Shown in pieces: positions 2,230 to 52,272 of a stretch of 64,000 nt of DNA. The DNA comes from Raillietiella orientalis (taxonomy: Eukaryota), in NCBI GenBank assembly GCA_036172245.1, contig JAYWIR010000027.1:1860001-1924000 (forward strand). Reading direction: 5' to 3'. Under the pieces are notes generated by a model. It made no database searches. It worked only from the letters and a program-made list of their open reading frames with translations, and was not told the DNA's origin. The position numbers and the translations under genes are program-made. The stretch's first letter is position 1. Every line of letters starts with the position of its first letter.

Positions 2230-3834
<1,605 letters not shown>

Positions 3835-3924
3835 CTGCCGCGGCCACTGGGCGGCTCACGAAGTTCCGCGCTCTGCCGGCCAGCAGCCCCAGGAGTTTCC
3901 TTTCCAGGAGACAAAGAGCAGCCG

Positions 3925-15403: not shown

Positions 15404-18233
<2,830 letters not shown>

Positions 18234-18272
18234 CAGACCGCAAACCTCTATTTAAAGTCACCGTTTCCTTTA

Positions 18273-21200
18273 TCAAAAGTTCAGCATTTCCTCGTCAGAT
18301 GAGTGATCTGCGCAGAGCAGCTGTGTGGACTCGTTGGGATCGTTGGTATTCACCTAATAAATTATTAAACTGGTTCGTTTGCGTGAGAACTAGCATTCAC
18401 CTTCGTGTAGCGGACATCGAGATAGTTTTGCCAGTCGCAGAACCTGTTGCGTATTCGAGTACACCACTGCTGCCTCTTGCACACGATAGCGGTCAGGAGC
18501 ACGCACGCCAGGAGCGCCATCACAGCAAATGTAACGCCACCTGCCGCAAAAAAAAAAAAAAAAAAAAGGAAAAAAAAAAAAAAAAAACCCACTGAGCCGA
18601 ACGCGAAGATCGGGGGTCCCTACCTGTCATTCCCCTCAGACTAGGGTTAGGTTCCTTTTCGATTGTCGTCAGTGATGGGCACACGAGCGGCGTCTTCCAT
18701 TCAAGGATAACCATGCACGGATATACCTGCAACAGAGTACCAAAGTCTTGCACAAAAAGGAAGCAGCTAACGTGTGGCACCTTCAGAAATACGTGTGTGT
18801 GTGTTTATATGTGTAAGTGCCCCGAAGCGCAAGCTGTACGTTTTTACTTTTTAGGCTTCAAAAAGCGTGGGGTTCGCAGCGAGGACGTTGTTTGCTGCTG
18901 CTCGCGCTCCGCCGCGCGGGATGCTGCAGGTACTGCGCAGAAAGGGAGGAGGGATGGAACGCTCGATCGCGCTTGTGGGGATGGGTGCAATTTCTAAGAA
19001 ACAACCAAAGAAAACGAACTGCACACTCGTAGTGTGTCACCAATGGCCGGCTTCGAGCTACACTTGGTCGCACAGACTCGGTCTTTCCCTCGTGGCGATG
19101 TTTGCAACGAGGTACCCAGGTTGAACGCTCGCGAGGGGACGGGAAAGGCAGACAGATTGCAGCAAGGAGGCTGCGGCGGAAGATCTTCCGTGATTATCGA
19201 TGCTTTCGAAGGGGAACAGGCAGCCGCCGCGCGCAAGCAGAGAGAGCCGGGGAGCGCGCACTGTGCGGCGGAGCTGGCAGACCGCACCTACCGCGGCCTT
19301 TCGCGAAGACGTCTGCCTCAGGCCAAGACGCCTCGTCAACCGATGGGAGTTCACCCTTCATTGCTCTCAGCCGCCGGTGATCTGCCGATCTCGCAACCCG
19401 ACTTACCCACCGCCTTTGACGCTCGCGAATGCATTGCTGTCATCGTTCGACTGATGCACTCTCGGACGTCATCGCCCTCGTTTCGTTCGTCAGTTCCTCT
19501 GAGAGAGGCCAGCTCTAGAGGCTATCGCTGCGCACCCCCAGATGACTGCACGATCCGCATTAGCGGTAAGATCGTGCCGGAGTTCGCCGGAGGCGATCCA
19601 CAAGGTCTTCCTTCCTCCTTTCCCTAATCACAATTCAAAGCTCGTGTTTGCTGCGATGCTCGGGTTCTTCCCCTACAAACGGCCTCCTTCTCCTCCTCCT
19701 CTTTTTTCAAGACGATCCCGTTTCTCCGGCACTCGGGTGCGATCTGGCAGCGCATATTTCGGGCGGACCGAAAAAACTCTGCCCCGACGGGGTCGGTGTC
19801 GCAACTCGGACCATCTCCGTGGACAAATTGCTCCGAGGGCCTCCGATTTATCGCGCTTTTTCTTTCTTGCAACATCGGGACGCTGTCCGATCCCGGATGC
19901 CGTTGCAGACCAGGATGAAGCTGACGTCAAGAAACCACGCAATCCGTTGGCGACCTGCTTGAGATCTCCGCCCACGCTTTTCGAGGCACACAGGGAGAAC
20001 ACAACCGGACCACCATCCAGGCAAGAAAGTCCACGAAGTATCCACTCAGGCGCTGTGGCGGCGCACCAGCCTCGAGCGCTCCCTCTCCCTTTCCCCTTGA
20101 GCATCGTCCTACCGTCAGAAAATAGACCGCAAGCGAACTGCCGTCGATCGCGGTGCGCGGCCTCCTCTCGAAGGGCTCGCGGTCCGTATGATCTGGTCCT
20201 CCCACGTCACAAGCTGAAGAGGAGGGAGAGTGGTTGAGATGCGTGCTCTTTTCTCACCCCCCCTTCCTTTTTATGTATTATTTTCGCGTTCGTTCAGAAA
20301 CAGCTCCAACATGTGTGATGGGCGCGCTGCAGGTACCACTGGATACAAAGAACACAGGCGCATGGTGCCTGCAGGGGGTTGCGGGTCATGTATCGGCTTT
20401 CTCCGTACGGAGAGGGGGGACAGCGGACTACACAGGGTACGAGGGAGAGCAGGGCACATCTTCCTTTCCCCGTTTTTCCCTCTGCCAGTCCTCGACTGCT
20501 TCCCTCCCCTGTTACCTTGCAGTAACTCGGTTTTACTTGCAACCCAAGCAGAGATGCCCTCCCTGACGAACCCGACAATGCAGCAGGGCGAGCTTGCCTT
20601 CCCGAAAGGGAGTCCCCCGAACCCTCTGGACGAAGCTGGGGAGTAGAGACACACTCCTCGGGGACGTGGGGAGTGAATTAGTGACTTTCGCAAGTGGAAG
20701 TCAAGAGGTCAAGCCGACAGAGCCGAGTCGTGACTCTGTGGGAATGGGAATGCTGCTCGCCGCACTCCAGGCACCGTCTCCTTTGCCCCTATGCCTGGAA
20801 GCTCCCCCGCCGTTCGGTTGAAAGAGAGCAAGGGATGCTCCATGAGGGGAACGACATCCTTCCCATCATCCCTTTCGCGCGTGGATAGCTACCAGCCGTT
20901 CTATCTTCCTTATTTTCTCTGCAGAAAGCGTGCCCCACAGGAACACAGAAATGGATCCGCGCAACGAAAGGAGCGATTAGGAAGGGGAGCGCCAAGCACC
21001 CCACGCGAGCTCGCGAGGAGGGGAGCCATGCGGTCCCTTCCCCCCTCTCGTCCCCAGGAAGAAATGGGAGGGCGACTCAAATATTCGCAGAGAAGAAATT
21101 CTGCAAGGCATGCCGCCACCCTCGGCATACACAACCTCTCAAGTTTTCTCCCGCTCGCTGCCTCCCCTTCCAACCATTGCCACTCCCAAACACGCATGTG

Positions 21201-24200
21201 CGATCGGCTGGGCAAGGAAAGCTTGTTGAAGCTCCTTCGCTTTCGTACGACTGATGGCAAAAGAAGAAGAAAAAAAAGAGGGTGCGGGCAAAAACTGTAG
21301 GCGGCAAGGGAGGAAGGAACAGAAAATGTTGTTCTCGTGATATTATCATCACTCACGAAGAAAAGGCTGGTGCCTCGTGCAGTATGCTTCTTTGGGGATG
21401 TGTCGGGAAAACAGAAGTATTCGTGCCGATGACCAAAGTCCGGAGCGCTTCCCTTGCAAGATAACTACACGAATACAGCACAGCACACTGGAGAAATAGA
21501 AGAGGGGTGGCCGATTGGAAAAAGTTCTTCGGGATTCTGTATGGGTTCGCTCCCCTCCGCTGGCACTCGAAACCAACACATGCCTCCTTCAACTTCTGAA
21601 GGCTTCACTTTTCCACAGGGCCACATTTGCTTTCCGATTTACGCGGGAATTCACCATCGTCTAGCCGTACAAGCTACTCGATGCCATCGCAAACGATGGA
21701 ATCGGGCATGCGGGAGGATCCGAGAGCATCCCCGCTTAGGAGAGAGAGCCCTCGACGGACTGGGACGCCTCCTCTCTTCCTCCCCCATCTCTCACGCCTC
21801 ACGAGAGGGGTCTCCGGCGGGGCTCACTGCACCCGCAAAATTTCAGCATGATTTCAGCACTCACGGGTACGCCGTTTCCAAAACCGCCGCACGACGGACT
21901 CGACGCGCAGCCAGAGGCTCCGCAGCATCCACCACTTCCCCGCGGCGGACCAGGCGAGCCGGCGCGGCTACGCGTCGCCTGCTTCCTCCTCCTGCCAACA
22001 ATGCGCTCCAGCCTCCGGATCTTCCGGCGGAACGGGGTGTGACGCAAGCGGGCGCGCGCGCGGGGAGCGCCCGGAGAAACGCGACTTTCGCGGCGCGTGG
22101 TGGGAGAGGATCGATCCCTGCGAAATCACCGAGCATCTCGGCGGCGGATGGGTGGATGCTGGGGGGAAAAGTCTGCTGTTCCCCCCCCCCCCCCCACGGA
22201 GCGCGACGAAAGCACCTGACGGCGGTGCTTCGCCGCGAGGAGTCATCCCGAGGAGTCGATACTTCTTTTCCTGGTTACCATGAAGAAACAGGATGAAAGA
22301 GGGAGGGGGGAGGGGTCGGACGGAAACCGCCAAAATCGTGCACGCGTGCGATCATCCCTGTAGAGCCCGCTGCAAGCGCGATCGGAAAACCTCGGCGCCA
22401 AAGGCGAGCATCCTTGAACGCACGAAGGCAACGGTTGCTCTCTGTACGGCGCAGACTCGGAACGGCACACCCGAGCGCGCTTTTCGAGGGCGCTTTCTTC
22501 GGGAAACGCTTTCTCGCGGCCGTTCTCTCTCTCCTCTCTCCCCCTCTTCTCTCTCTCCTTTTTTGTCGTCCACCATATCTCGTCTGTAGCTACATACATG
22601 CATGCCTTCCAGTCAAAGTGTCAAGGGCGCTTGTCACCGAGAATACGGTTCGTTTGAGGAGTTCGTTTGTGTGTGTTCGCGACGTTTCGCCAGTCTGCCA
22701 GTGTCCGCGTTGCCCCCCTGCAGGATACGCGAAGGCGCGTGCACCCCAGGAGTGTTTTATTCGCGTGGTGTGCGCGCGGCCGCGCGCCGGATCCCATGCT
22801 GGGGAAGGGAACGAACGCACATCTTCCAGGCTGCGCAGGATTCACCCATGGGTCTTTCACGAAGAGGAAACAAAAGGGGCGCGCGAAGAGGAGAGGTGAC
22901 GTGATCACGAAAAAGTAAGTGAGGCTGGGCTGCTCGCCGACGGAATTTCGCGAGTCCTTTCTCTCCTTTTCGGAGCTTGCATCTTCGACGCACGGGCGGT
23001 GGTGCTCTACGGTCCCCCAGGCAGCCGCGACTAAGCGCCGGAAACCGCGCTGTCCATCCCCTCCCCCTCTTTCGGTCAATGCAACAACCGGGCAAAAAAA
23101 CAGCGCCATGTTTGCCTTCGCGCCAGATACGCCGCTCACTGTCATGTGGGAGGGGGGGGACGGGGAGGAGTGACGCAATTTCCATCGAAAGTCTGAAGGG
23201 AGGGCACGTTGATTTTTCTCGGGACGTTAATTTTGAGCAGGCGCGCGCGCCCGCGCCTGCCTTCCCTCTCAGAGGGATGCGAAGGGGGGAGAGGGGAAGA
23301 GGAGCAGACAGAAACAGAGAGCACCAGACATGGCAACGGTTTGCTCGCACAGCCTCTGTTTGAATTAGCTGGCAACACCTTTCTTATTGCTCCGTCGTTA
23401 TAGAAACAACCGGTAGCCAGACGGCGTCGCCAGCCCATCCGCTGCGGTGCGCGTAGCTCTTGGGCTCGAAACACCGAGGCAGCAGCAGCAAGCGGCCTTC
23501 GACTCGTCGTCCGTCGGTCGCCCGCCGTTCGCGTCTCCTCACTTCCGCCCGAGGAAATGGCAAATCGGTTCCTCCGGAGCCAGAACCGTCCCAGGCAGCA
23601 AGCGACCCGAAAGCGGAGCTGCCGCTCGCCTGTTTCGACACGCCAGCGGAAGACAAATTTCGGGTGGCACCAGACGCCCTTAGAAAGTCAACTTTTTCCT
23701 TTCTAAGAGTGGATGCTGTGCGATGGCGACCAAAAAAAGAAAAGAAGAAGAGCAAAAAAAAAAAAAAGGTCGGGGAAAGAAAACTAGGAAACGCAATTGC
23801 AAGACGGCAACCAGTTCCACGTTTCGCAAGAAGCGGACTCGTAAACTCTCTCCTCGCGCCATCCAGAATGGCATCGTTCGCGGTAACGTCCTCGCGCCAT
23901 CTCGCGTGACAGAGCCCCTACCCTTGCTGGCAAAGTCAGCAAAGTGCCGCGGACGATGCTGAGTGACTCAGGCAGCGCAAGGGGAAGGCCCGGAAGTCTT
24001 CTGTTTTCCACTCCGTTTCTCGAAGCGAAGTCTTCCTCCGCAGAACGATGGACCGGTTCGCGGCGGAGGAAGTTGTAACGCTTCATTTGAAAAAAACAAA
24101 AACAAAAAAAGCGGGAAGGTAGCAGCAGCGTTCGGATCACTGAATTTGCCGGAAGCTTCCCGTTGCCAGCCCGCTTACCCTACGGCGGCGAGCTCTTGAG

Positions 24201-27200
24201 GAATTTATCGGCTATTTCCTCGCAAGAACCACGACCACCACTGGACTCTGAAGGGAAGGGAAGGAGGACGGCTCTTTTGGCAAATGCCACTCTTCGAACC
24301 TCGTAGATCCAAACCAAGATCGAAGCAACACGAGTGCGCTCGTGAAGCCGCAGCTCACGGCCCTCCGGATGCGCGAGATCACTTCCCGAAGTTTTTTGTT
24401 CCCTTCTCCGGGGGGGCCGCCCGAGGACGCTCCGTAGCAACTCCCGCTCGCGATCTGCCCGGCGAAAGCGTCGGATGGGGGAGGGAAACACGCTCGACCT
24501 CATGCGACGGGAGAGGATGGACCAAGGGAGCGCGAGGATTCTCCCCCTCCCCTGTCCCAAAGCGAGGGGGGAGGAGGGGGCACACTCACTTCCCCATGTC
24601 TCTTCCTCCACACCCCTTCCTTCTCTTGCTCCGCAGCAAGGAGACCCGCAACGAGACGCATGTAGTGGGCCTTCCGGCAGGATGCTCGCGCGCCCTCCCT
24701 GATCCGCTTTGATTTCAGGCAGGATGCTCGAGAACACGCGAGGAAGGAAAACGCAGGCTGTCCTCCTGCTCCTCCTGTCTTCGCTCCACCTCTTTCACGC
24801 GAGCGACTTCGTTTCCAAGTGCAGCCAGTTCGTCGCCAAGCAGGATCACTGCCAGTGCGATCCCAGCCTGCGTTACGGCGGCTACGAGATTGCGTGCCCC
24901 TCTTTCGTCGCGCCTCGCCTCGCCATAACCTTCGTCCCGGAAAAGGTGCTCCAAGTGCAGTGCCATAGCTTCGACCGCGACCACTACCTGCACCTGAAGC
25001 ACCTCAGGTTTGATGCTGCGCCTGTGGTGAACCTGAAGCTGTGCCCTCTCCCCTCCTTTTCCTTTGAGAGGATCTTCCGCGGGATGGGTCTGGGACCCAC
25101 GAGGAAGCTGACATTCAACTCTTTCAGCAAGGTGGCGCTGACCATCAACCCGGCGTACTTCGAAGGCATGCGCGCGCTCAGCGACCTCCAGATGCAGCAC
25201 AACAACATCTCCGTCTTGCACCCGTTGCCGCTACACAACCTCACTGCCCTCTACCTCAGCGAGAACGAACTGCGCGTGCACGAAAGCATGTTCATGCACT
25301 ACAAGAACCTGCAGATCCTCGAACTGGGCAGCAACCGAATCGCGAATCTGCCCAGGCAAACATTTGAGCCTCTGGGACGGCTGCGTATCCTCAATCTGCA
25401 AAAGAACGTCCTGAAGAGCCTCCACCCGCAGCAGTTCGCCAACCAGGACCAGCTCGAGAGCCTCGACCTCCACGGCAACCGGATTGAGCTCCTGCACGAG
25501 GACACCTTCAGCAAAGCAGGCAGGCTGAGGCAGCTGGACCTGTCCCACAACAGACTGCTGTCGCTGCCGGAAGCCCTGTTCGGGAACAATCGCGAGCTCG
25601 AGTATGTGAGCCTGAGCTTCAACAGGGACATGAGAGAGTTCCCTGAGCACCTGTTCGACAACAACACCGAGCTAAAAGAGCTCTACATCTCGCACTGCGC
25701 CATAGGCAACATCCGCAGGGGTAGCTTCGGCTCGCTCCGCAGCCTGAGAAACCTCAGCATCGCGAGCAACCGGCTGAAGTTCATACCGACCGGTTCGTTC
25801 GGCAGTCTCAAGGAACTGGTCCACCTGGACGCGAGCGAGAACTTCGTGAGGAACCTGGGCGCGATACCGATCTCCGAACTCGAAAACCTGAGGACCCTCG
25901 ACCTTCACGGGAACCTCATAACGATCGTGACGGAGCAAAACTTCCAGCCACTGAGGAAGCTGCGCAGCCTGGATCTCAGCGACAACGCCATCGCCACCAT
26001 AGCTCAGAAAACGTTCGTACAGAACCGCGACCTCAGCTACGTGAGTATGAGTGGCAACCTCATCCAGATGAACGGGGCGCCGCTGTCGACCGCGCCAAGT
26101 TCCCCCTTCGGCGCCTGCGTGAACCTAGAACACCTCGACCTGTCTCGCAACAACCTGACCTACATCAGCGACGACTGGAAGCTGCTCCTCAAACTAAGGG
26201 TTCTCGACCTGAGAACGAACGCCTTCCGGAGTCTGACGGGCTTCGATCTGAACTTTCTTTCGGAAGGACTGGAGGTGTACCTGCAGGACAACAAAATCGA
26301 GACCGTGGATGTTGAGTTCCTACCGAAAAGCGACCTCAAGAGATCGAACAGAAAACAAAACTACATCCACCTGAACAGAAATCCGCTCGTATGCGACTGC
26401 AAGATGCTTTCCTTTGTGAGCTACGTGCACAAACAACACCTATTAAGAGCAAAGTTCACGTTCGACTTGGACATGACTTGTAGTAAGCCGGATTCCGATT
26501 CGACAATAATCTCGATAATATGCGTCAACGTAGCCGACCTTTACTGTCCCATAGAACGCCAGTGTCCGAAATTGTGTTCGTGCAAGCTGAGGGCAACCGA
26601 CGGAGCAATCGTGGTGGACTGCAGGTCCCAGAATCTCACGGCAATCCCCAGCACCATGCCTCTCAACACCTCTGTTCTCATGCTCCACAACAACTCCATC
26701 GAAACCTTGGAGAATCTAGAGATGTACAGCAATCTAAGAGAACTAAACCTCTCGGGGAACAAGGTCAAGGCACTCGAAGTCACGAGCTGGCCGAAATCAT
26801 TAAGAGTTCTGGACCTACAGAGTAACGAATTCGAAGCCTTGGAACAGGGCACCTCCAAAAGCCTGATACACTTCCTACGAAATCCGAGCTCGGTCCTGCT
26901 GCTGGGAGGAAACAAGTGGGCTTGCGACTGCCGTGTTTTCGCGCTGAGGAATTTGGGGCATGCCTACTATGCAAGCATTCTCGACTTGGCCAACGTGACA
27001 TGCGAGAACCACACTGCGGTCATGGAAATGCAAATAGATAGCATGTGCAACGCCACGGCCACATCGAAGATAGTGAACGCGTGTATTGCGTTTGCCGCGA
27101 TACTGATGGCCGTCTCTGGGGTGCTACTTGTCTACAGCAGGCATAGTGACACAATCAAAGTATGGCTACATGCCCACAGAATGCTATGCTGGTCAGCAGC

Positions 27201-30200
27201 TTCCGCAGAGAAGGAACTTGATAGGGACAAGAGATACGACGCGTTCATCAGCTACTCGCACAAAGATGAGGAATTCGTGCTCAGGGAACTGGTCCAGAAG
27301 CTGGAAAACCAGGAGCCCAAATACTCGCTCTGTCTGCATTTCCGTGACTGGCTGCCTGGGGAGTGGATCCCCACACAGATTGCCTGCTCTGTTCAGAGTT
27401 CACGGCGCACCATCATTGTGCTGTCCAAGAACTTCATGGCATCCATTTGGGGACACATGGAATTCCGGTTAGCACACAAGCAAGCACTGCAGGACAGGCA
27501 CAACGGTGTTATTGTGATTGTGTATGGAGAGCTGCCTCCATTTGAAAAGATTGATGCAAGTCTGAGGATGTACCTCAGAACAAACACCTATTTGAAATGG
27601 GGAGACCCATGGTTCTGGGAACGCCTGCGTTATGCCCTTCCCCACAAGGGGAGGTCAGGGAACAAGGGGAAGCAACGAGCAAGCGCAACAGATGGGAGCT
27701 CATGAAGACATAAAATGGCTACTTCTTACCCCAAAGACAGATAGCTGCAACTGATTGTCAGGAAACTGTGAAGGACTGCACACAAAGCGAACTTCTGCAC
27801 TGTAGTGACCACCTGGTAAATGAAGGTGGGGTGGAGATGAGAATGAAAAGAAAAGAAAAGAAAAAAAAAAAAGCCTTCTTCTTTCAAAACTACCAGCTCT
27901 ACAAGACTGTGAGTCCAACCTACCATAATTAGTGCAGGAATCTCCACCTGAAAACATCATGTGCAGCATGCCATCAACATACAACATCTTCCCAAGCTGG
28001 AATGAGCCATATGACTGGATCTGTTGACTGCCGTTGTTGTAAAGTCCACATACTGCTGCACCTGCACAAGAAGCAATCCCATGGCACACATTGATCAGGA
28101 ATGTGTAGTTCTCATGGTTTACCTAGGTGAAAAAAGAAAATGAAAAGAAAAGACTGACCTATGATCCCACCAAAGCAACAACCCAACCTAACCTAACTCA
28201 CCACATGACTTTGCTTGCTGCCACTTAGGGGGGAAAGGTCAAAACGGATCCCCAACTCAGAATCCTGGTAGATACACGTATCAGACACATGCTGGGTTTT
28301 GGATTTTAAATTGCACACCAAACTGGTGTTCCACTCAAACTCATACTGGCAGCTACTGCGATTTTTCAAATGGGGCAGCTGAAACCTAGGTCTGAAGAAG
28401 TCCAGAGAGCACATGTATCTTACCCCCAGTGATCCCTTGGAGCAATGAAATGTGATTTTTGAAGTAATGTTTTCTTTCCCTGATGGACCACAGGCAGAGC
28501 CACCTGAATACAGCAACACCACACTGCCATCCTTCTTTAGGATGGGGTTCATGCTAGGGGAACCGAGGCTCTAGAGCCAGTGTATTTAAATCTCCAGATG
28601 TTTTTAGAGGATGCTCACCAGTGGTTCCGAATACCCTTCTGTGAGACCTACCACTCTGCAAATGGCTGTCTCAGGAGGGCAGTTCAGTTTGGGCTGTGAC
28701 AACAAGGGACCACACACATTCAGAAAGAACTCCTCCGTGGGATAACTTCCATATATGAGATGATAGTTGTGTGTGGTAGCCATCAAAGGAGTGAGGTTGA
28801 TCACATCAGTAGAAGTCTCAACCAAGCAATCAATCTGCTTTCAAAAACCAATAAAAACAAGGGAGCTTCTCCCACATGGCTTGTCTTACCTTTGGTCTTG
28901 GGCACACAAGCTGAGTGTACCAGTAAAACTCAGCTCCACACCTAGCATGCATTTCTCGGACAAATTGTGGTCCTTCCACTTCAGAAGATGGGCACAAGAA
29001 GGTGATGGAAGCACTGCTTTGTCCAGAATTGCAACTACTGCCATTGAGATAGTTGAGGATGGGAAACCCATTTTCCAGTACCACTCTGTTTGTAGCAGTA
29101 CCAATCTTAGTGAATGCATGCATTGAACTGTTTCTCCAGCAAACTCCTGAGACATGGGTTAAGAAACATCTTACCATACAGTAGAGGTGCTACCTACCAG
29201 CCCCTGGACCACAAGGAGAATTGGGGATTTCCTGACAGATATTGAGGATGAACTCCATCTCCCCATGAAACACGGAATAAGAAGAATGAGACAGTTGTAA
29301 AGATGATAGGTTGTACCTAGGTACCTAAGTGTTGGGTATCATTTTCATTGCTCATACCAAGAACCAGTGTCAGAGTCCTGGATGCAACAATCACAAGCCT
29401 TGGAAAAAGGAATCAGGCATGCAGCTGAACTTTCCCAGACAAATAAATGCTGGCAACCAGTGTTGCTTATAAACTGTGGCTCTCCAACCTGCATTGCAAG
29501 CCAAAAACAAAAACGAAAGTTGAGCATAGCTTGTTCACACATTCACTCACCTTTACAGCTTTGTTGCAATGGAATTCAATCAAAGTTTCATGATGCAACT
29601 TGCCTGATTTCAATGTGTCGTCTGAACATAAACTGCCAGTTATGTAATGCAAATACAGCAATCCATTTTTCACAAAAGGTCTTTCAGACAACAGTCCAGT
29701 ACTGATGAATCTGTTTTGGACAGTGAACCGGAATCCTAAGAGAATGACTAACTGACTTTTCATGTGAACTGTTTTCTTTCTGAATAATCTGACAAACTGC
29801 ACTGTTGTGGGTACAATGAATTCCAGGCTGGGGATGTAGTGTGCGGCAGATGTTCAAATAGTACTTGGTTTTATTCCCTAAATCTATCTCATAGTTGGAA
29901 TAGTGGCGCATGAGTGACGAAATATCATAAATTCCTTGGAGTGTGTTTGTTTTACAGGGGAGCCAATTATGTGGAGGGCACACATAATGACTTCTCCAAA
30001 TGAAAGTAGCAGTGCATCTGTAGCTACTAACAAATTCAATCAGAGATTCCAAAAACATGTCACACAAGAAAATAAAAACTGTAGATCTGGGGCTTGGGCA
30101 TAGCATTTCATCACCATTTACATAGGTAAGGGTGCTTGTATTGAATACACCAGGGTATTCACCTGCAAACAATCACTCAGGCAGCACAATCAGGATACTC

Positions 30201-32306
30201 ACCTGCACTATATGACCGTTGATCATGAACCTCACAAACACTAGCACTTTTCTTTCCATCACACTGATTTACAAGTGGTCCACAAACATTGATCAAATAA
30301 GTCACATTATCTGCTATCACTTTCCAATCTTTGCTGTTACGCAAAGGCTGTAAATCATAAGCATTCCCTAGCTCATCAATAAGCTGACAATTATTTTTCA
30401 TATCATCATGCTGAAGAAAAAACAACAGTAACATATTTAGCACATGAGTTCTACCTTTTGAGGACAAGCTGCTGAAGTATTCCACTCGAAGTAATACTCA
30501 CACTGATTGCTGGTGACACTGACAAGTGCAGGCTGACCAATATTATCTGCACACGTGAGCTTAACAGCTGAACGCCGAAACTTGTTACTAGATGGGCATA
30601 AAGATCCACCTATTATGAATTGAATACATGCATTACTGCCTACACTGAATGAAAAATACCAGAATAGTTTAGCAGCAAACTGTTGTCTTTCTGTAACATT
30701 GGTCCACTGTGTGAAATACCCAGACTCAACACTTTCTTGCTGCGCCAGTGCACCTGACAGATCCCAAATCCTACATCCTTCTGAGCTCCCTCGATATTCT
30801 TTTTAATAAAGGTCTAACCTTCACATTCTTTCCATGATGTGGCCCTCTCATTAAGAGGATGGCATACACTTAGGAAGAACAGTAAGTCTTCCTCATCATC
30901 TAATACAGCAAATCCCTCAGAAGCTTGCAATTCAGAAAGATCATAAGATTCATTGTTGCTGTTTCCTATTTGACAAGTAAGAAAAGATGGGCACACAAGT
31001 GGTGTGCGCATTTCAAACTGAAGTGCTTCCTTTGAAACTGAAACAAATGTGAGGTGTTTGGAGTTGTGTTCATCACAAATAAATTGGATTTCCGTTTGAT
31101 ACCCCACATCTAGTAGTACCTGATGAGTCAGTGTGTAGTCAAATCCTAAATTACCTGATCCATATGATAACAACAAGATTTCCTGCTCCCACCTTAGCTG
31201 CATCTTGTTCTTAGCTCCTAAACTTTTACCACTAGCATTTCTGTTCACTTGACAAACTGCAACCCCTGCATCATTACAGTGACCATCGAAAACTTCCCCA
31301 CAAATGTTCACTTCAAATGTTTGGTCATCATGAAGAACTTCATAGAAATCTGGTTTCCTTAGAGGTAGTATATTGACAGCATGGTTTGTATTCGGAAAGA
31401 GAATGGAACATTTTGATTCCTTTTCAACTACAGGGGAGTGTTTGGAAAGGCAACCAGCTAAAGATGCCCACACAAACTGGAAGACACATTTGCCAGCAGG
31501 AGGCAAAAGATGAGGACCAGAATTCTGGAACGAAAGAATTCAATCTATGTACAACTGCTAAGACAATAATCTCTGAAAGAATCAAACTAAAAGAACCATT
31601 TAGTATTCCAAGGCTAAATGGAAAAAAGAGTATAATCCTTTACCACTTCAGAACAGCTAATCTGTATTCTACTTTTGTAAGTTGTGTTCCTTCCCATAGC
31701 TATACATGGAGTACTGCTGTCTAGAAGGAGATGTATCCCCAAACCTTCAGTGTAAAACACTACAGACAAAAGAAAGTTTGTGTGGTAATCATATTTCTCA
31801 CTTAATCTTCAATGCGCAATCACAGCATTAAATTACACAGTTTCCTCTAAAAATTAACCAGACTCTATGCACATTCTTTACTCAAGCAAGTTTCTCAATA
31901 TGCATGTGTTTGAAAAACCTTTCATGGTCTGTCCTGCATTTTCAACATCTTGCACTTCTTTTCCATTTTCTACTTTTGTAACACATACATGAGCATCACT
32001 ACTACACACATTCCTTTTCGTTTGTAATGAATCCCCACATATACTTATGTAGTAGTTATTAATTTTATTGGAATCCTCAATTTTCGATGGTGTAGGGTCA
32101 TGCAGACTGTAAAATGATCATTGAAATCAGATACAAGAACAATGACCATCTTACAAGGCTAGGTTATATGATTCGTTGTGATTTCCAATAAGGCTATATA
32201 CGCAATTTCCCAGATGTGTCAGTTCAAATTCATCCAATTCTCTGGATAGCAACAGCAAAGTGAGAAATAACAAGGATTGGAATGCATAAGCAATATATCT
32301 AGGCAT
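18273..32306 (-). CDS. IGF2R: Cation-independent mannose-6-phosphate receptor / LERP-like type I membrane protein with 8 MRH (CIMR) repeats
   Basis: ATG at 32306 with signal peptide (MPRYIAYAFQSLLFLTLLLLS). Multi-exon repeats of the pattern C..YDL..L....Y.IN[VI]C....C...C..F.W.[TS]..C run to exon 27812-27730 (..LQLSVFG|gtaag). After a 9003-nt intron come exon 18726-18624 (VYPCMVILEWKTPLVCP..), exon 18540-18401 (TM GGVTFAVMALLACVLLTAIVC, tail ..YLDVRYTK) and exon 18353-18273 (VNTNDPNESTQLLCADHSSDEEMLNF*). Phases are consistent at these junctions; some internal exon boundaries were traced only approximately. Confidence 0.9.
24724..27705 (+). CDS. Toll-like receptor, protostome multiple-cysteine-cluster type, single coding exon (993 aa from first ATG)
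   Basis: Signal peptide, long LRR array (LxxLxLxxN), LRRCT (NPLVCDC), LRRNT (CPKLCSC), short LRR block, second LRRCT (NKWACDC), TM (IVNACIAFAAILMAVSGVLLVY), TIR domain (YDAFISYSHKD, CLHFRDWLPG, TYLKWGDPWFWERLRYALP). The ORF track starts at TTG 24709; the first ATG is 24724. Confidence 0.97.
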   Translation: MLENTRGRKTQAVLLLLLSSLHLFHASDFVSKCSQFVAKQDHCQCDPSLRYGGYEIACPSFVAPRLAITFVPEKVLQVQCHSFDRDHYLHLKHLRFDAAPVVNLKLCPLPSFSFERIFRGMGLGPTRKLTFNSFSKVALTINPAYFEGMRALSDLQMQHNNISVLHPLPLHNLTALYLSENELRVHESMFMHYKNLQILELGSNRIANLPRQTFEPLGRLRILNLQKNVLKSLHPQQFANQDQLESLDLHGNRIELLHEDTFSKAGRLRQLDLSHNRLLSLPEALFGNNRELEYVSLSFNRDMREFPEHLFDNNTELKELYISHCAIGNIRRGSFGSLRSLRNLSIASNRLKFIPTGSFGSLKELVHLDASENFVRNLGAIPISELENLRTLDLHGNLITIVTEQNFQPLRKLRSLDLSDNAIATIAQKTFVQNRDLSYVSMSGNLIQMNGAPLSTAPSSPFGACVNLEHLDLSRNNLTYISDDWKLLLKLRVLDLRTNAFRSLTGFDLNFLSEGLEVYLQDNKIETVDVEFLPKSDLKRSNRKQNYIHLNRNPLVCDCKMLSFVSYVHKQHLLRAKFTFDLDMTCSKPDSDSTIISIICVNVADLYCPIERQCPKLCSCKLRATDGAIVVDCRSQNLTAIPSTMPLNTSVLMLHNNSIETLENLEMYSNLRELNLSGNKVKALEVTSWPKSLRVLDLQSNEFEALEQGTSKSLIHFLRNPSSVLLLGGNKWACDCRVFALRNLGHAYYASILDLANVTCENHTAVMEMQIDSMCNATATSKIVNACIAFAAILMAVSGVLLVYSRHSDTIKVWLHAHRMLCWSAASAEKELDRDKRYDAFISYSHKDEEFVLRELVQKLENQEPKYSLCLHFRDWLPGEWIPTQIACSVQSSRRTIIVLSKNFMASIWGHMEFRLAHKQALQDRHNGVIVIVYGELPPFEKIDASLRMYLRTNTYLKWGDPWFWERLRYALPHKGRSGNKGKQRASATDGSS

Positions 32307-34806: not shown

Positions 34807-34958
34807 CTCCAATCAGTTGCGATTCCAATTGTTTTTGCGAAATGTTTGTTAATGTCAGCCGTCTAAACAAGAAACTTCGTTAATTCAAATATAAACATGC
34901 AATACACGATAAAATTAAACCCGCTTTCAGCTCTTCCAAACTAAATCCTCTATCGGGG
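34807..34958 (-). pseudogene. RPL13: Inverted partial copy of RPL13 (end of exon 1, intron 1, start of exon 2)
   Basis: Reverse complement reads cccc gatagaggatttagtttggaagagctgaaa|gcgggtttaattttatcgtgtat...acgaagtttcttgtttag|acggctgacattaacaaacatttcgcaaaaacaattggaatc, matching 37057-37201. The donor is changed GT>GC and the intron is 7 nt longer. Confidence 0.93.
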
Positions 34959-36844
34959 TGGATCTTCGCTTTCTCCTGCAGGCTGCTCACCGCCTTGGGC
35001 GTCGTCCAATCCTGACACAGCGTTGGTCAGGTGAAAATGTGGAGCTGGATTTCCCCATTTCCACAGGCCTTGCAGAGCTCGTCTTGGCTGCTTCCTGTCC
35101 GGTGCTTCACTCGGGTGGTACTTGGGATGCCTCTGTGGTGGTAGTATATCAGGTGGTCGTCCTGAGTGTCCGGTGCTAGGTCGCTCCTCCACATAGTCGT
35201 ACCAACAGCTGACAGGTTCCGTGTCTCAGGATGCCGTAGCAGTTGGTGGCCTTCGTTGGTGGCTCCCTTCATTCACTCCCAGATGTTGGATCTGCGACCA
35301 ATCCTCGCGGATCAGGCGCCACGCATTGGTCGCTTGGTGCTTCCAATGCCGGCAGGTCCTGTGGCTGAATCTTCCTATTTCCGTGATGCAGGAGTAGACC
35401 CCCCTTTGGGAGGGGGACCCTCCGTGTCGTGCCATGGAGTAGGTGTGTTGCCATCTCGCCAGAGAGTGCAGAGAAGCTTGCCGCTCCCTTCAGGGAACGC
35501 CTCATCTGAATTTCTGATTGTCCCTTCGGGGTTCTCTTCAGAGGAGTTAACAGGAGCGGTTCCTTTGAAAGTTGCCTCCGGAGTTGTCACCCGATCACGC
35601 CGGGGCGTTTATTGATAACAATAAACTTATCACTTTCGTGGTACGAGGTCCCACTATGACTAGCTCAACAATGGATCTGCCGGTCGCCAGTAGGCAGGTC
35701 GTCGGGCTCACCTCAGCAGCAGAGGGAGATGGAGAAAACACAAATGAAAAAGAGCAAAAGAATAGATAAAAATAAACCAAAACACTTGGGAGGGGTGGGA
35801 AGGGATCACTGCCCGCTCGGAGGAGTCTTCATCCGTTCCAAGATGCCAGAAAGATCCGTCCGAATAATCCCCAGGTGGGACCATCTGGCCGCTATCCGCA
35901 GGAAGCGAACTGCGATACAAAGTGACTTTTTGCTAGAAGGTAACTTAAGTAATTTGAGCTCTCCGAAAAGACGTGATTCGAATGAAGACATTAACATGAA
36001 AACATGTGTAACATTTTTTTTTCCAGGAGTTCTAAGGTTGTTAAGACAATAATAATCCAATTAGGGTATGGAAAGATCATTTCGGTTTCTAGGGAAAATA
36101 TAGGTACATTAACCGATTTTCAGATTACAGTGTCTCCGAAATTTCCATATGCAAATGGGTTCCACAGCCTCAGTCTTTTTATTTTTTTAAATTTGTCATA
36201 ATCTTATTCTTGTAGTTATAGAAATGAGTTTCTCAGAGCTTTTTAATACAAATTGTTGCACAGAAAATAATTTCATGATTTCATTAAGAAGCATTGTGAG
36301 CATTATTAAACCATTATTGCAGTAATAAACATTATAAAGTATCTCATAAAGCATAATTTTGAGTGCTTTTTGAATAATTGAGTAGAATAAATGAATGTTC
36401 GGAACTCTCTTTCGAACTACAACGAACTTTCATAAGGTAGACATTTATAACTTGAAAATTAGATCTATTTTCTAGAATTGACAAAAAAAAATTTTTTCAA
36501 TCGGGAATGTTGTATTCTTCATTATCTGGTTAAAATCAAAATCATCAGTTAAGAATCGTGATTGTGTTTTATTGGATTGCTCCTTCATTCCCGAAAAATT
36601 CATACCTTTGCAGAATTGTGTTGGCATCCCTTATGCCTTTACTTCCGTTACGGAAAGACTGATGCATCATGTAAGTTGTACCTTGAAGGATGTTTGAAAT
36701 CGTGTGATATTTGGAAATAGGAGACAGATTTTGGAACGTATGTAGCCCGTACCTGTGTACACGGATCAAGTTTTTTATGATGAATTAATTTTAGGTAGCT
36801 TAGCTGTTTGAAACTTTGGTGAATTTTGAGGGAAAGGCTTGAAA

Positions 36845-37661
36845 ATGGCACCGAAACGAAATAATATGATTCCTAACGCTCATTTCCACAAAGACTGGAA
36901 AAAAAGAGTGAAAACATGGTTCAATCAACCCGCTCGTAAGCAAAGACGGAGGCTAAAGAGGCTCAAAAAAGCCAAAAGGTTGGCACCGAGACCTGCAGCT
37001 GGTTTGTTGAGGCCTATCGTTCACTGCCCAACTGCAAGATACAACGCGAAAGTTCGCCCCGGTAGAGGATTTAGTTTGGAAGAGCTGAAGGTGGGTTTAA
37101 TTTTATCGTGTATCGACGACGTTATTAACGAAGTTTCCTGTTTAGACGGCTGGCATTAACAAACATTTTGCAAGAACAATTGGAATCTCTGTTGATTGGA
37201 GAAGAAAGAATCGTTCGGTTGAGTCTTTACAGGTTAATGCTCAACGTTTGAAAGAATACAGGTCACGTCTTATACTTTTCCCCCTGAAAAAGAAAATTAG
37301 GAAAGGTGATGCAACAGTAAGTTGATAATTTGTTCTAGATAGTGTAAGGTATATTTGTGTGTGATTAGCTTGAAGAGCAAAAAATGGCCCAACAGTTAGT
37401 GGGGCCAATCATGCCTATTAGACAGCGCTACAAGAAGGAAAAAGCAAGGGTCATTACTGATAAAGATAGAAAGTACTCTGCTTTCATAGCTCAGAGACAG
37501 GTAATGGAATTGGATTTTGTACTGGTCTCACTGTTCATATGTAGGCACGTGCTAATAAACGCTTATTTGGTTATCGACAAAAAAGGGCCAAGGAATCCAC
37601 AGAAAATCCGGACACTACCAAGGCTTCAAAAAAAGACAAAGCTGCCAAGAAAAAGAAATAA
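36845..37661 (+). CDS. RPL13: 60S ribosomal protein L13 (eL13), 221 aa
   Basis: Exons 36845-37090, 37146-37316, 37369-37500 and 37545-37661 splice in frame: [32 protein letters not shown]...[39 protein letters not shown]...[17 protein letters not shown]. Introns are 55, 52 and 44 nt. Confidence 0.97.
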
Positions 37662-38002
37662 AAGCAACAGTCTAAAAATGGAACCCTTTTGAATTCTTGT
37701 TCATTTGTTCTTTTTTCTCATGCATTACATGTGATATTGGTTTCCAGATGGTCCAATTATTGGATAGGGTATTGAATTGGTCTTCACTAGATGTCCGTTT
37801 TAGATTTGAGTTTTCCCAGTCCCATGAGGGATGGGGTAAGTTTATTTATCTTCATTCACAGTACAAAACACATTCACTCAAGATGGGGCACAGATTAACT
37901 GTTTCCTTAAGTTCACTTCCTTTGGGGGACTGCACTTGGGTCTATGCACTTGGAGGACCTGTGTGTTGGGTGTGTCTGGATGGTATCCTCACTTCTTTTC
38001 AG

Positions 38003-38188
38003 GATGTGGTGGTACATCCAGGACTACACTCTTCCACAATTCCTGATACCAATCTCCCTTTGGATAATCTTTTTCAGGATTTCTAGGGAAGATATGGCTA
38101 TCCTGGCTTTCCTCATCTTCCACCATTATATAAGGATGACAGTGACGAATAGGGTGATGGTTGTCTTGACCATTCGGTTGTATCAGGA
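38003..38188. repeat. Copy 2 of the unidentified duplication; contains stops in both in-register frames
   Basis: Aligns to 34485-34667 in direct orientation; minus-frame REIGIRNCGRV vs REIGIRSCSRV. Confidence 0.7.
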
Positions 38189-41100
38189 CACGTTTGCAGT
38201 TCCCTGGAACATTCTGACGAGGGAACATTCAACATCTTCGTGTTGTTTGGCAGCTCATTTTAGATTTGAATTCAGTACATGCTGAACAGAGCAGATGCTT
38301 GGAATCTCTCAGAATGTGGTTTTTGGCTTGTATGTGTGGGTATACCTTGGATCAGGAAACAGTTTGTTTACTGTTTGGAGGTGTACTAAATGAAAGTTGT
38401 CACTGATCATCTTAACCTTGAGTAAGGCTGGGTCAGAGTGCTTGTCCAGATATCAGTATGTGAGTGATGATGGTCAGTATTATAGTTGATAATGATGTAT
38501 GCTTGTAACTACTAAGTTTATCCCAGTGGGAGGATGGGTTTTAGAATGTGCAAGGACATGCACAAATGTAATTTGTAAACACAAAGTATCAAGTATGCTC
38601 ACTGTCCATCCATGAGATTTGCTTGGGAAAGTGGATGATGCCCCATTTGCCATGAGGTGGTGAGGTGGACGATTCTGTCTTGTCTTAGTTTTGTACAGGG
38701 AAATTTGGTTAACACTTCTTTCATTGCATATCAATTGCATGGACTACGCACATGCAAGCCATGGCTTTGATTGTTGATTTGATTGGTTGGTAGTTCCAAT
38801 TTTTTTTCAACCACAGAGTGAATCATAAGGGTATCTGCCTGGCAAGTTAAAACTTGTACCAATTTCAGTCTGTTTCATGCCCCACAGTGGTTTTTATTTC
38901 AGTGACCAATAGTGGTGCAGCATACAGATGGAATGCCATTTCCCAACACATGCAGTAAGTGTTGCTGTTATTCATGTGTCATGAGATGTGCTGGTCTGTA
39001 ATGGGAGCATTCATCACTTGCTGTAGAATGTTTGAGGTTTCTGGCACCCAGTAAAGGGCATCAAAATAGAATGGGTGGTTTCACAAGCATAAGTAGAGAA
39101 ACTACCAGCCCAGTTGAGCTCACTATTCATCTTTAAGCGATGAGCCGAACATAGGAAGCCTTGGAGATCTAATCTATTCGTTACGCAAAATCCTATTGAT
39201 ATGCTAGATCCTGTTGGCCACAGTGCGTCTTTTCTCCCCAGTTTGCCCCTGTTCAAGTAGCTTGTAGCACCTGAAATTGTGAGGGAAACAGCTTTTTATG
39301 GAATCTGCGCTGTCAACAGCAAGGAACTTAAAACGGAAACTTCGGCCATGTTACTTCAGCGTCTCAAGTTTATTCCCTGGGTTTGTTACGTGCCGAATTT
39401 CATGAACCTGCTCCCGAGACGTGTACCGAGCAAACATCCGTGCCGTTGTCCACGCAGTCAGATGACGGAAGGCGACGGATGCATCCCAAATCCTCACATC
39501 TGAAATGACCGTAAATCGGTCCGTGAAAGTTCAAACGGATGCTGTCGATGAAATGCCATCCTAAGGACCGACGTTATCCTCCTTGCAGCCAGACTGCAAG
39601 TGGTCCCTCGCCCAAGGGCTGCTGCTGCTGGGTCTTAATCCTGCTCATCCCACCCATCCAACCTTATGGCACCATCCACGGCATCGCCATTTTCCGCGTG
39701 CAGCTGGATCTGCGCGGCGAGCATATATCGTGACTTGAGCTTCTCCGTTTGCCGGAGAAATGACTTTTTCTGCATATGAGAAAAGGTGTATTATTGTTTG
39801 CAAGGGAGAGATGACCCCTCCGCTGCCGATGTGTAACTTTCTATCGAATTCCTATGAATCGGCATATGGTACGGTCCACCTGCAGCATGCGTCCGTATGC
39901 TGTCCCCCGAGGTTTGCAGAACGAACATTAAATTCTAGAACCAACCGACTCAACCCATTTGACATCCATGCAGTTGTTCCACAGAAATGCCTAAAGGTGA
40001 GTGAGTAAGAAACTCGAAGCGCAGTTGTTCCAGAACGAGCAATGGGTCTTGACCGGTGGCTGCTGTCTGGACCAGGTAGAAACAAACGCACCAGGCGCAC
40101 GATGAGCAATTCGTGAGACCGCCAACGATTCGCTGCGAAAAAGGACCATCCCCCCCCCCCCCTTCTGGCGTTCGAGTCCTCGGGGTTGCGAACTCACGCG
40201 CCAGCAACTCAAGGAGGCGCGAAGGCGGCGGCGAGAGCGAGCGAACGATGCGCGCACCATCCACTTGGGAAGCCGACCGTCGTCGCATCCCATTCGGGAA
40301 GGCTCCTCAGCACATCCCCGCCACCTTGCGAGGAGTCGATTCGTTTCGGATGGTGATAAACTCGGATGCGCTTCCGAAGTGCACAATGCCACATGGGGAG
40401 GAGGGGGAGCATCTCCTGGTAGAGGAACGCGCCCTTTTCGGGGAACTTCGCGTCAGACATACACGAACTTTCACGTGTTCCGTCCTCTTCCAACAAAAGT
40501 GAAATTTCCGGCTCAAATCTCGTTAGCAAGTCCTGAAGCACCGAATAAGGGTCAGTTCTCGCGGCTTTCCTGAAATCCCATGAACGGGTGAGGATAGACA
40601 TTCCCCAGATAGCGGAAACCACACTGCTGGCATAAGGGGGGGAAGAAGAGGATGAGATCATGCTGCAAGTAGAGAAACGTAGAGAGAGGAAAGGGCACAG
40701 TCCATTGGGGGAGGGGGCATCTTCGTCGAGACTACCACGAGCTACCGCCCGTAGGCTCCCTTGACGTGTTTCCTGCTCCCCTTCCCCCCATCCAGTAAGA
40801 CTGCCCAATTTTCCGTGCTACGCCCTCATTCCCTCGTCCGTCCACGCAACGAAGCGGGCCCCTCTAGGTCCAGGAAGGCGCCTCCGGCGCTGCCACCGCC
40901 TCAGGATCCTTCTCCTCATCGGGTCTGCTTCCCTGAATCGGGCGTCGCTAGCGACGAGCGAGCTCGCGCATGCTCACCTGAACGCTTCCTCGGCAACGCC
41001 CAAGCAAAAAGAGAGGAAAAGAAAGGAAAGCGCGCGCGCTGCAAAGCCTTCAGGGGTCACGACCGCGGCCCTTCCCTTTCTCCCCTCCTCTCCCTTGGAG

Positions 41101-41439
41101 AGCGCGAATCGCCTCTTTCCTTGCCGCTGCAGACGGAGTGAGCTCCGGAACGGGTCCGGGAGAGCTTCCTCCGCCGCAGCAGCTCGCCTCTGCCTCCATG
41201 CGCAACGAGCAGAACGCGTACCTCCTGAGGTTCTGGATAGACGGGAGAAGAGAACACGGGAAGCCGGCATGGGAAGAGACGCTGCACAAGGAGTTTCGGT
41301 GACGGAACCGTCTTTCCTGTATTCTCGTTTCCTTGCAGTTTCATCCTTCTTCTCGTCCCCCTTTCCGGGCCAGAGGTTCTTGGTGCCAAAGGTGCGTCGG
41401 AGGGAAAGGAAGCGGTCCAACCGGGAGGATTTCCGCGGA

Positions 41440-46282: not shown

Positions 46283-46760
46283 CTGCATCACGAAGGGGAA
46301 GTGCTGAGAACACAGGAAGAGATCGGTTGTCTCGTTCGGGAATCGTTTCGGGGAAGGGGGAGGAGGGAGAGTTGGAGGCGGGAAACACCCTACTCCCTCT
46401 GCCAGCGTCCCAGCTTCCCATGTGCTCCTTCACGCTGTTGGAGGTGTCAGACCCGGGTCGCTGGGCGCCTTCCTCTGCGTGACGCCGGCGTTAGAGGAGG
46501 CGGAGTGGCGTCACTCGCGGCCGGTCCCCGCGGTCGATCGGCGGCGTGCGCGTCGTCAATCGACCGCACTCGAAAAATGCCACGCATTCCGTGGATGGGG
46601 GGGGGGGAGAAGGGGGCATCCCATCATCCATTAGGCGGCACATTCCCCAAACCAGATCTTCACGACCGCGGTGCCTGCGGCATGCGAGGCCTGGAGCGTT
46701 CCAGCCAGCAGAGGAGGCCGCGTTGGCGGCTACCTGGATGCGGTCCCTCTGAGTGAGGCA

Positions 46761-52192: not shown

Positions 52193-52272
52193 TACTCCCT
52201 GTAGGAGTGCGCAGCAGCTCCGTGCACTCCCACGCCAAGGTGCATGCAGCCCTCCACTGCGCCTCGGGGTCT

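Follow-up and report, generated by a model that had tools for sequence, protein, structure and literature searches.

The 64-kb window, which is the whole stretch of DNA that was analysed and has an N count of 0, contains a CI-MPR-like gene (MPR) with eight MRH domains on the minus strand and, inside one intron of that gene, a Toll gene on the plus strand. MPR exons 1-16 with their short introns occupy 27730-32306 from the ATG at 32306, as delimited by Pfam CIMR matches, tblastn, HMM searches, heuristic gene models and the CpG observed/expected ratio (o/e); the tblastn and HMM matches to MPR homologs span 32117 to 27703. These exons encode a signal-peptide-like start, the first seven MRH domains and the greater part of domain 8. 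A preliminary description of this DNA had the reading frame breaking at a GTAAG donor within the last MRH domain and resuming in phase 0 after 9,003 nt, and direct reading of the splice sites bears this out. Exon 16 (27730-27812, minus strand; peptide end ..LQLSVFG) has its edge at 27730 with GGG/GTAAGA, or ..CTGTCTGTCTTTGGG/GTAAGAAGT, where the slash marks the exon boundary and the GT lies at 27729-27728. The GT-AG, phase-0 intron (18727-27729, minus strand) closes with the acceptor ..CTCTGTTGCAG/GTATATCCG. Exon 17 (18624-18726, minus strand) opens in phase 0 as VYPCMVILEWKTPLVCP.. and carries the end of MRH domain 8 followed by a linker. It is separated by an 83-nt intron from exon 18 (18401-18540, minus strand), whose translation reads as the transmembrane helix GGVTFAVMALLACVLLTAIVC, a KRQQ stop-transfer sequence and the first part of the tail, RYTKV among it. 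A 47-nt intron then precedes exon 19 (18273-18353, minus strand), which finishes the cytosolic tail with ..HSSDEEMLNF before the TGA stop at 18275-18273. The remaining MPR introns are about 38-165 nt in heuristic gene models, one of which gives 40-165 nt, compared with 9,003 nt for the large intron, in line with the earlier claim that the others are short. A stricter gene-model variant gave introns of mostly 38-81 nt and over-spliced the 5′ end, with introns of 228 and 431 nt there. Domain 7 is also interrupted by a phase-0 intron, of 45 nt (28423-28379), at the place matching the 9,003-nt intron of domain 8.

Completion of the last MRH domain was evaluated with an HMM made from 50 domains of seven homologs. 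Domain 8 spliced to exon 17 scored 63.4 bits over HMM columns 37-147, whereas the truncated or read-through domain scored 47.2 bits over columns 37-122; exon 17 adds 16.2 bits and columns 123-147. Without exon 17 the domain is incomplete; splicing to that exon supplies the remainder, including the final conserved Cys/Trp strand, as the preliminary description had proposed. The two strands of the window yielded 2,383 ORFs with a length of 12 aa or more, and among them 18523-18804 on the minus strand was the only one outside the main MPR exon block (27.7-32.6 kb) that matched the C-terminal HMM columns. A motif scan of the minus strand from 18.2 to 27.7 kb revealed no other MRH-end motif of MRH character. 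An alternative domain-completing exon closer to the donor was rejected, none being returned by the motif scan or the HMM search of ORFs. Exon 17 by itself gave no Pfam match, and its tblastn alignments with the last-domain ends of three crustacean homologs were weak (E ~1).

Pfam CIMR (PF00878) matched all three of the long MPR ORFs tested (24.3, 34.1 and 55.3 bits; cut-off 22.5), and the homolog-domain HMM attained its last column eight times, corresponding to eight MRH repeats. Such domains number 15 in the CI-MPR of vertebrates and five in Drosophila LERP. With eight repeats the host differs from the vertebrate receptor and resembles ~1,300-aa crustacean proteins named CI-MPR, represented by Procambarus clarkii XP_045597766 (1,318 aa) and Armadillidium nasatum KAB7506987 (1,312 aa). 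It has in common with these short arthropod forms the MRH/CIMR repeats, a similar length, one transmembrane helix and an acidic-dileucine C-terminus, while identity over the query region is just ~27-30%. The transmembrane and tail exons claimed earlier are present with both sorting motifs found in homologs: RYTKV is of the YxxΦ type, homolog tails having Y-x-x-L/V motifs in a similar place, and the C-terminal ..SSDEEMLNF is of the acidic-dileucine type, comparable to the homolog C-termini ..HDDSDEDMLNI and ..DDSDDDLLRV. An exhaustive representative protein search with the MPR query returned 173 homologs, and a search for longer homologs with one MPR ORF found none among 53 candidates at E ≤ 0.001. 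In tblastn of 2,000-2,600-aa homologs orthologous domains were not assignable because the repeats cross-match. Since the homologs are distant (27-30% identity), the exon order stands without confirmation from any ortholog.

The Toll coding sequence (24724-27705, plus strand) comprises 993 codons and a stop in one coding exon, identified by Pfam LRR_8 and TIR and by homolog search. Its stop-to-stop ORF (24703-27705) is intact, with the ATG at 24724 and the TGA at 27703-27705. The product has a signal-peptide-like start, LRR blocks, an internal LRRNT-like cluster, a transmembrane segment and a TIR domain. LRR_8 matched in nine stretches (1.1e-62, 208 bits) and TIR at residues 842-963 (7.8e-16, 58.8 bits; cut-off 21.3); the LRRNT match at residues 617-650 (24.0 bits) was under the 25.8 cut-off. 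The best homolog was Orussus abietinus 'protein toll' (E 2e-153; 35% identity across 93% of the query), which likewise combines an LRR ectodomain, a transmembrane segment and a TIR domain, with a candidate internal cysteine-cluster region also in common; the identity is low. The preliminary description had spoken of a single-exon Toll coding sequence. That holds, but a single exon for the whole gene is doubtful, given the pyrimidine tract and AG directly upstream of the ATG (acceptor-like sites at ~24636 and ~24719), which suggest an intron in the 5′UTR.

The 6 kb of intron DNA upstream of Toll (18727-24723; GC 0.58, CpG o/e 1.04) presumably holds its promoter and 5′UTR. None of the 14 long ORFs in this DNA matched Pfam. 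No tandem or dispersed repeats beyond A-runs were detected in the intron, and no Rfam family or tRNA across the whole window. Host-sense poly(A) hexamers are neither enriched nor avoided in the intron, with one AATAAA (22761) against 1.5 expected. Toll was not accepted as a retrogene. The A-rich run at 27836-27877 is located past MPR exon 16 and forms part of the pyrimidine tract in one of the short MPR introns, and the 6 kb of DNA upstream of Toll within the large intron also argues against such an origin.

The whole Toll coding sequence and the DNA upstream of it thus lie on the opposite strand inside the single MPR intron at 18727-27729, as described before. Only 24 nt separate the Toll stop from the edge of MPR exon 16, and the first AATAAA downstream of Toll on the plus strand is at 28850; therefore a Toll 3′UTR of normal size must overlap MPR exons antisense, and the arithmetic behind this part of the preliminary description is sound. 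From these distances, the Toll transcript is probably not free of overlap with host exons. At the other end of the host, a convergent RbAp48/Caf1-55-like WD40 gene has its last exon (17265-18233, plus strand), recognised by Pfam, homologs and poly(A) signals. Its stop (18231-18233) is 39 nt from the MPR stop, and its product is ~90% identical to many animal homologs.

Strong CpG depletion (o/e 0.18) marks MPR exons 1-16 together with the short introns between them, exons (0.18) and introns (0.17) alike. The 9-kb intron, Toll and MPR exons 17-19 have an o/e of about 1.0; in exons 17-19 it is 0.99, and the depletion never returns. At NNY/G sites the C:T ratio is 12:6 in exons 17-19 versus 6:174 in exons 1-16 (p 5e-11). 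Between these states the depletion fades across the final ~600 nt of the Toll coding sequence, so that the host footprint ends ~600 nt into the intron. In the last 202 Toll codons (27100-27705; o/e 0.43) synonymous C:T is 7:20 at NNY/G versus 51:14 where a base other than G follows (p 3.5e-6); the NNY/G ratio of 7:20 compares with 95:23 in Toll codons 1-792. The footprint of RbAp48 is already present ahead of the first coding exon that was mapped, crosses >0.7 kb without mapped exons and reaches the stop; a unit transcribed throughout is therefore expected to be depleted throughout. A CpG-depleted block that starts within RPL13 extends ~1.5 kb beyond the stop of that gene, where no recognised gene lies. 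Footprint ends are an uncalibrated marker of transcript ends here. Moreover, methylation profiles along genes vary among arthropods, according to the accessible part of PMC7343188.

The CpG record points to a long-term difference in methylation between the germline states of the two genes, in which the 5′ 5 kb of the host would be methylated like nearby housekeeping genes, and Toll, its upstream DNA and the last three exons of the host would be unmethylated in the germline. In Nematostella, loss of gene-body methylation leads to open chromatin and spurious intragenic initiation, as stated in the available portion of PMC13345969. If gene-body methylation suppresses intragenic initiation, an unmethylated pocket is a requirement for an intragenic promoter.

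The locus is, with good confidence, explained as an ordinary opposite-strand nested pair in which Toll occupies the 9,003-nt intron of a short arthropod-type CI-MPR. The anatomy, splice-site sequences, phase, domain completion and conserved tail motifs are observed, and on sequence grounds the junction from 27730 to 18726 is predicted to be used in vivo. The host would be transcribed on the minus strand from ~32.3 kb to ~18.0-18.2 kb and would yield an arthropod-type short CI-MPR of eight MRH domains and roughly 1,200-1,350 aa. Removal of the 9,003-nt GT-AG intron would place exon 17 directly after exon 16, in phase 0, completing the last MRH domain and supplying both the membrane anchor and a cytosolic tail that carries endocytic (YxxΦ) and acidic-dileucine sorting signals. 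Toll would be transcribed on the plus strand from its own promoter inside the MPR intron, with a predicted transcript start and end; the 3′ end would have to enter at least MPR exon 16. Against the nested-pair reading are the CpG footprint of the host, which ends ~600 nt into the intron and is absent on exons 17-19, the matches of exon 17, which are individually weak in tblastn and absent from Pfam when that exon is taken alone, and the distance of the homologs.

The overlap of the Toll mRNA with MPR exon 16, nearly forced by the 24-nt gap and the distant AATAAA, could go further and couple the two genes, with convergent transcription or duplexes between the Toll 3′UTR and MPR exons causing mutual inhibition and linking immune signalling to lysosomal sorting. 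Transcriptional interference has been published for nested genes (accessible parts of PMC3192792 and PMC5174743). The sequence holds nothing specific to regulation, however, and searches for a conserved structure or RNA family found none, and such coupling is considered unlikely. Antisense coupling, transcriptional interference and a soluble MPR from premature termination are proposals that exceed what an ordinary nested pair implies.

Somewhat less likely still, the Toll locus may be a long-standing boundary that splits the gene-body methylation of the host. If methylation tracks germline transcription, MPR transcription in the germ line would mostly stop at the Toll locus, or its chromatin mark would be erased there, and the state of Toll could in that case decide whether an anchored or a truncated receptor is made. 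In the 'soluble MPR' reading of the preliminary description, germline and perhaps general MPR transcription would mostly cease within a few hundred nt of the end of exon 16, giving a product without a transmembrane segment that ends ..LQLSVFGVRSSHFMSS, with exons 17-19 used rarely or conditionally. The end of the CpG-depletion block at ~27.1-27.3 kb and the undepleted exons 17-19 agree with such a short isoform, as do a read-through frame that hits a stop nine codons past exon 16 and a weak AATACA variant on the host strand at 27087. Yet this product would end within an MRH domain, lacking HMM columns 123-147 and the final Cys, and the host strand at 26.5-27.7 kb has no AATAAA or ATTAAA. The frames of exons 17-19 are intact, their splice sites are good and the two sorting motifs are preserved, which is hard to square with disuse; the footprint is uncalibrated as a guide to transcript ends, as the ~1.5 kb overrun at RPL13 illustrates, and gene methylation profiles differ among arthropods (PMC7343188, in the part available). 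A predominantly short isoform is accordingly judged improbable. Least likely is an assembly artefact in which the GC-rich Toll block, with or without exons 17-19, was misjoined to MPR and the nesting is unreal: the shift in GC and CpG between 27.7 and 27.1 kb is abrupt, but it is graded, the C:T ratios of 7:20 before G and 51:14 otherwise in the last 202 Toll codons are a CpG-specific decay expected only if these codons have for a long time adjoined the methylated MPR block, the window is free of N, and the exons flanking the intron agree in phase and complete one domain. The graded decay thus speaks against misjoining at 27.7 kb and marks the adjacency of MPR and Toll there as old.

The MPR/Toll pair lies in a genome with a CpG-depletion (methylation) record, which Drosophila is not known to carry. 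In other features the preferred reading, a nested pair, fits what is known of them. According to the accessible part of PMC3814207, nested structures include nearly 10% of Drosophila genes, the nested gene being on the opposite strand in 71% of cases, the median intron is 4,826 bp with a nested gene versus 138 bp without, and nested genes are narrowly expressed and including genes broadly. As in the Drosophila melanogaster pairs of that source, the guest here is on the opposite strand in one oversized intron (9,003 nt versus ~40-165 nt), the MPR host is housekeeping-like and the Toll guest belongs to a gene type with narrow use. Unlike those pairs, whose UTRs and coding sequences are non-overlapping in the same part of PMC3814207, the Toll 3′UTR must overlap host exons. 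The gene 2mit, in an intron of timeless2 of Drosophila, is likewise a protein-coding guest in opposite orientation, the genes being unrelated to MPR and Toll (PMC3786989, in the part available). Since nesting of this form is common in Drosophila, the MPR/Toll pair belongs to a known kind, an ordinary one in arthropods. The literature search found no paper joining mannose-6-phosphate receptor, Toll, nested and intron, and, for nested genes with gene-body methylation, nothing on host and guest methylation among the matches listed, as far as their accessible text goes; for arthropod CI-MPR it brought up nothing of use. The CpG record is the new part of the finding.

The nested pair as such matters little, such pairs being common. 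It carries a warning for annotation, in that the MPR gene spans Toll and, if this is missed, MPR would be called without its transmembrane segment and its three last exons would be orphaned. The CpG record provides an argument for the true adjacency of MPR and Toll that is independent of the assembly. It also predicts that methylation of the host body is broken by a pocket without methylation, containing the guest and the last exons of the host; such a pocket would bear on the proposed suppression of intragenic promoters by gene-body methylation.

The mannose-6-phosphate-receptor-like gene (MPR, minus strand) was modelled heuristically from the ATG at 32306 down to 27730 as 14-16 exons, with exon edges in the 5' half being approximate. 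The introns of this part measured 40-165 nt in one model and mostly 38-81 nt in a variant that over-splices the 5' end. Exon 16 ends at 27730 with the peptide ..LQLSVFG, followed by GTAAGAAGT. A pyrimidine-rich tract closing in CAG precedes 18726, from which the frame reads VYPCMVILEWKTPLVCP in phase 0, defining a long intron of 9,003 nt at 18727-27729. On the minus strand, exon 17 (18726-18624) is followed by an 83-nt intron, exon 18 (18540-18401), encoding a 21-residue hydrophobic helix and then KRQQ, by a 47-nt intron, and exon 19 (18353-18273) ends with ..HSSDEEMLNF and a stop codon; signal peptides and transmembrane helices were called by eye. The pyrimidine tract of the 83-nt intron corresponds to a 40-nt A-run of the plus strand with one GG interruption (18548-18587), read as a T-run in the MPR orientation. 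The stop-to-stop ORF of the Toll receptor gene occupies 24703-27705 on the plus strand, with the ATG at 24724. All coordinates previously assigned to the MPR/Toll locus were found correct when re-read in the sequence, and the sequence-level evidence backs the proposal that Toll is nested antisense in one 9-kb MPR intron, a structure considered highly probable.

In order to evaluate exon 17 as part of MPR, an HMM of the MRH domain, the repeat of the lumenal part, was built from 50 domains excised from seven homologs obtained by a representative search. Domain 8, the last and the one split by the long intron, scored 63.4 bits and reached the last HMM column when spliced to exon 17; when cut at 27730 or continued into the intron it scored 47.2 bits and ended at column 122. 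The HMM was then run on every ORF of 12 aa or longer on both strands of the whole window (2,383 ORFs). On the minus strand the matches extended from 32117 to 27703; outside this block of exons 1-16, the C-terminal columns were matched by a single ORF, at 18523-18804 (minus strand; E 0.17 in the 2,383-ORF set). Other columns gave four weak matches elsewhere in the window (4.1-6.9 bits), and a motif scan agreed with the HMM scan on exon 17. The end of the last domain also aligned to exon 17 in three homologs of ~1,300 aa (two crustacean and one Logan), each with a weak E value of about 1 because the aligned stretch is short. The MPR tail carries RYTKV and an acidic-cluster dileucine-type C-terminus close to the homolog ends ..HDDSDEDMLNI, ..DDSDEELLPTI and ..DDSDDDLLRV.

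The end column of the HMM was reached eight times in MPR, giving eight MRH domains. Domain 7 contains a 45-nt phase-0 intron behind a GGG codon at a position matching that of the 9-kb intron and, in view of this counterpart, the latter resembles a normal domain intron that grew large. An exhaustive protein search with MPR returned 173 proteins at E ≤ 0.001 with top identities of 27-30%, and the homologs looked up were all annotated as cation-independent mannose-6-phosphate receptor. Long homologs of 2,300-2,500 aa were found in a scorpion, echinoderms, a hemichordate and a nemertean, and short homologs of about 1,300 aa in crayfish and woodlice; the R. orientalis MPR fits the short arthropod form of the latter. 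No close relatives were present among the searched collections.

The Toll protein matched Pfam LRR_8 (E 1.1e-62) and TIR (E 7.8e-16), and an LRRNT-like cluster scored 24.0 bits, slightly below the cut-off. Exon 17 and the Toll ATG are separated by 6 kb of GC-rich DNA (0.58), in which 14 long ORFs were tested and yielded no Pfam family. The intron contains no repeats besides A-runs and no Rfam family or tRNA. The Toll ATG is preceded by two acceptor-like sites with a pyrimidine tract and AG at about 24636 and 24719, and an upstream ORF of 6 codons arises at about 24682 from a 13-nt direct repeat containing an ATG. These features suggest a spliced 5'UTR, and a non-coding first exon of Toll is probably located farther upstream.

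The Toll stop lies 24 nt from MPR exon 16, and the Toll mRNA would therefore have to overlap at least that exon, as anticipated in the preliminary description, according to which a Toll 3'UTR of ordinary length would run antisense over MPR exons. Downstream of the Toll stop, the plus strand has its first AATAAA at 28850 and no ATTAAA up to 30.5 kb. Judged from these signals, the Toll mRNA would extend over up to five or six MPR exons if it is polyadenylated at the first canonical hexamer. A second overlap is predicted at the other end of the host gene. The stop of an RbAp48/Caf1-55-like gene on the plus strand (18233) and that of MPR (18273) are separated by 39 nt; the first AATAAA of the former (18356) is inside the last MPR intron and that of MPR (18059, minus strand) inside the RbAp48 coding sequence, signals suggestive of a tail-to-tail overlap at 18059-18361.

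Four blocks had a CpG observed/expected ratio (o/e) of about 0.1-0.3, compared with about 0.8-1.3 in the rest of the window. The depleted blocks, sharply bounded and located at housekeeping-type genes, cover RbAp48 (15.9-18.2 kb), MPR exons 1-16 (27.1/27.3-32.3 kb), a stretch beginning within RPL13 and running onward (about 37.4-39.2 kb) and an RsfS/MALSU1-like ORF (57.0-58.6 kb); Toll and an ankyrin-repeat gene have an o/e of about 1. Such a mosaic is the pattern expected if some broadly expressed genes are germline-methylated, housekeeping genes being reported as enriched among arthropod methylated genes (PMC7343188). The RbAp48 depletion sets in ahead of the first mapped coding exon, crosses more than 0.7 kb without a mapped exon and reaches the stop.

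Several further features of the window were recorded. The depleted block at RPL13 continues past the stop (about 37660) over 37700-39200; this extension may correspond to a long 3'UTR, to a gene that escaped recognition or to a non-coding RNA. Two inverted-repeat arms linking 34807-34972 with 37043-37201 (78 and 71 nt, 89-90% complementary) reveal that part of the RPL13 exon sequence is copied in inverted orientation about 2 kb upstream of RPL13, in DNA with higher GC and CpG than the gene itself. None of the 12 ORFs tested at 37700-39200 and in the copy region (34.4-35.2 kb) gave a Pfam match. Two ankyrin-repeat ORFs at 2230-3855 on the minus strand (Pfam Ank, 6e-12 and 9e-8), in a CpG-normal block of 61-65% GC, are probably parts of one multi-exon gene. 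The regions 40000-48000 and 50000-56000 (59-67% GC, CpG o/e about 0.9) contain numerous long ORFs in every frame, with no Pfam match among those tested, and a near-perfect 47-nt palindrome with arms 91% complementary and 1 nt between them is located at 52103-52197.

Depletion in MPR is similar in exons 1-16 (o/e 0.18, GC3 0.39) and the short introns (0.17), stops within the long intron (1.04 outside Toll) and does not return on exons 17-19 (0.99, GC3 0.65). At synonymous third-position C or T preceding G (NNY-G sites), C:T was 6:174 in exons 1-16 versus 12:6 in exons 17-19 (p 5e-11). The Toll coding sequence as a whole has an o/e of 0.87 and a GC3 of 0.74. Depletion nevertheless extends about 600 nt into it and is specific to synonymous CpGs: the last 606 nt have an o/e of 0.43, and in these 202 codons C:T was 7:20 before G versus 51:14 otherwise (p 3.5e-6), the first 792 codons having 95:23 at NNY-G sites. 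This CpG-specific decay indicates that Toll has long adjoined the methylated MPR block. The graded decay into Toll, together with the absence of N bases in the window, argues against an assembly misjoin near 27.71 kb, one of the refuting conditions named in the preliminary description.

For the host gene, the end of the MPR depletion inside the long intron is genuinely unusual. One possible explanation is that the Toll locus is kept unmethylated and that the small terminal exons of MPR fall within that pocket. In Nematostella, gene-body methylation is reported to suppress intragenic initiation (PMC13345969); should this apply here, an intragenic promoter would need the unmethylated state. It is also possible that methylation in R. 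orientalis does not follow the whole transcription unit, consistent with a report that methylation profiles along genes vary among arthropods (PMC7343188) and with the block beginning within RPL13, which continues for about 1.5 kb beyond the stop through DNA where no gene was recognised. That germline MPR transcription often stops near 27.1 kb, yielding the soluble MPR proposed in the preliminary description, is quite improbable since the product would break off within a domain, the host strand has no canonical poly(A) hexamers at 26.5-27.7 kb and exons 17-19 are preserved too well for idle sequence.

In Drosophila melanogaster, nearly 10% of genes are reported to be in nested structures, with 71.27% of nested genes on the opposite strand, a median intron length of 4,826 bp with a nested gene versus 138 bp for others, and expression that is narrow in nested genes and broad in hosts (PMC3814207). 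The MPR/Toll pair agrees with that report on each of these points. A literature search returned no paper joining both gene names with 'nested' and 'intron'. The pair itself seems to be undescribed, but the kind of arrangement is well known. Overall, the locus adds one more case to a known kind of arrangement, and only the division of the host gene into two parts of different composition merits experimental follow-up.
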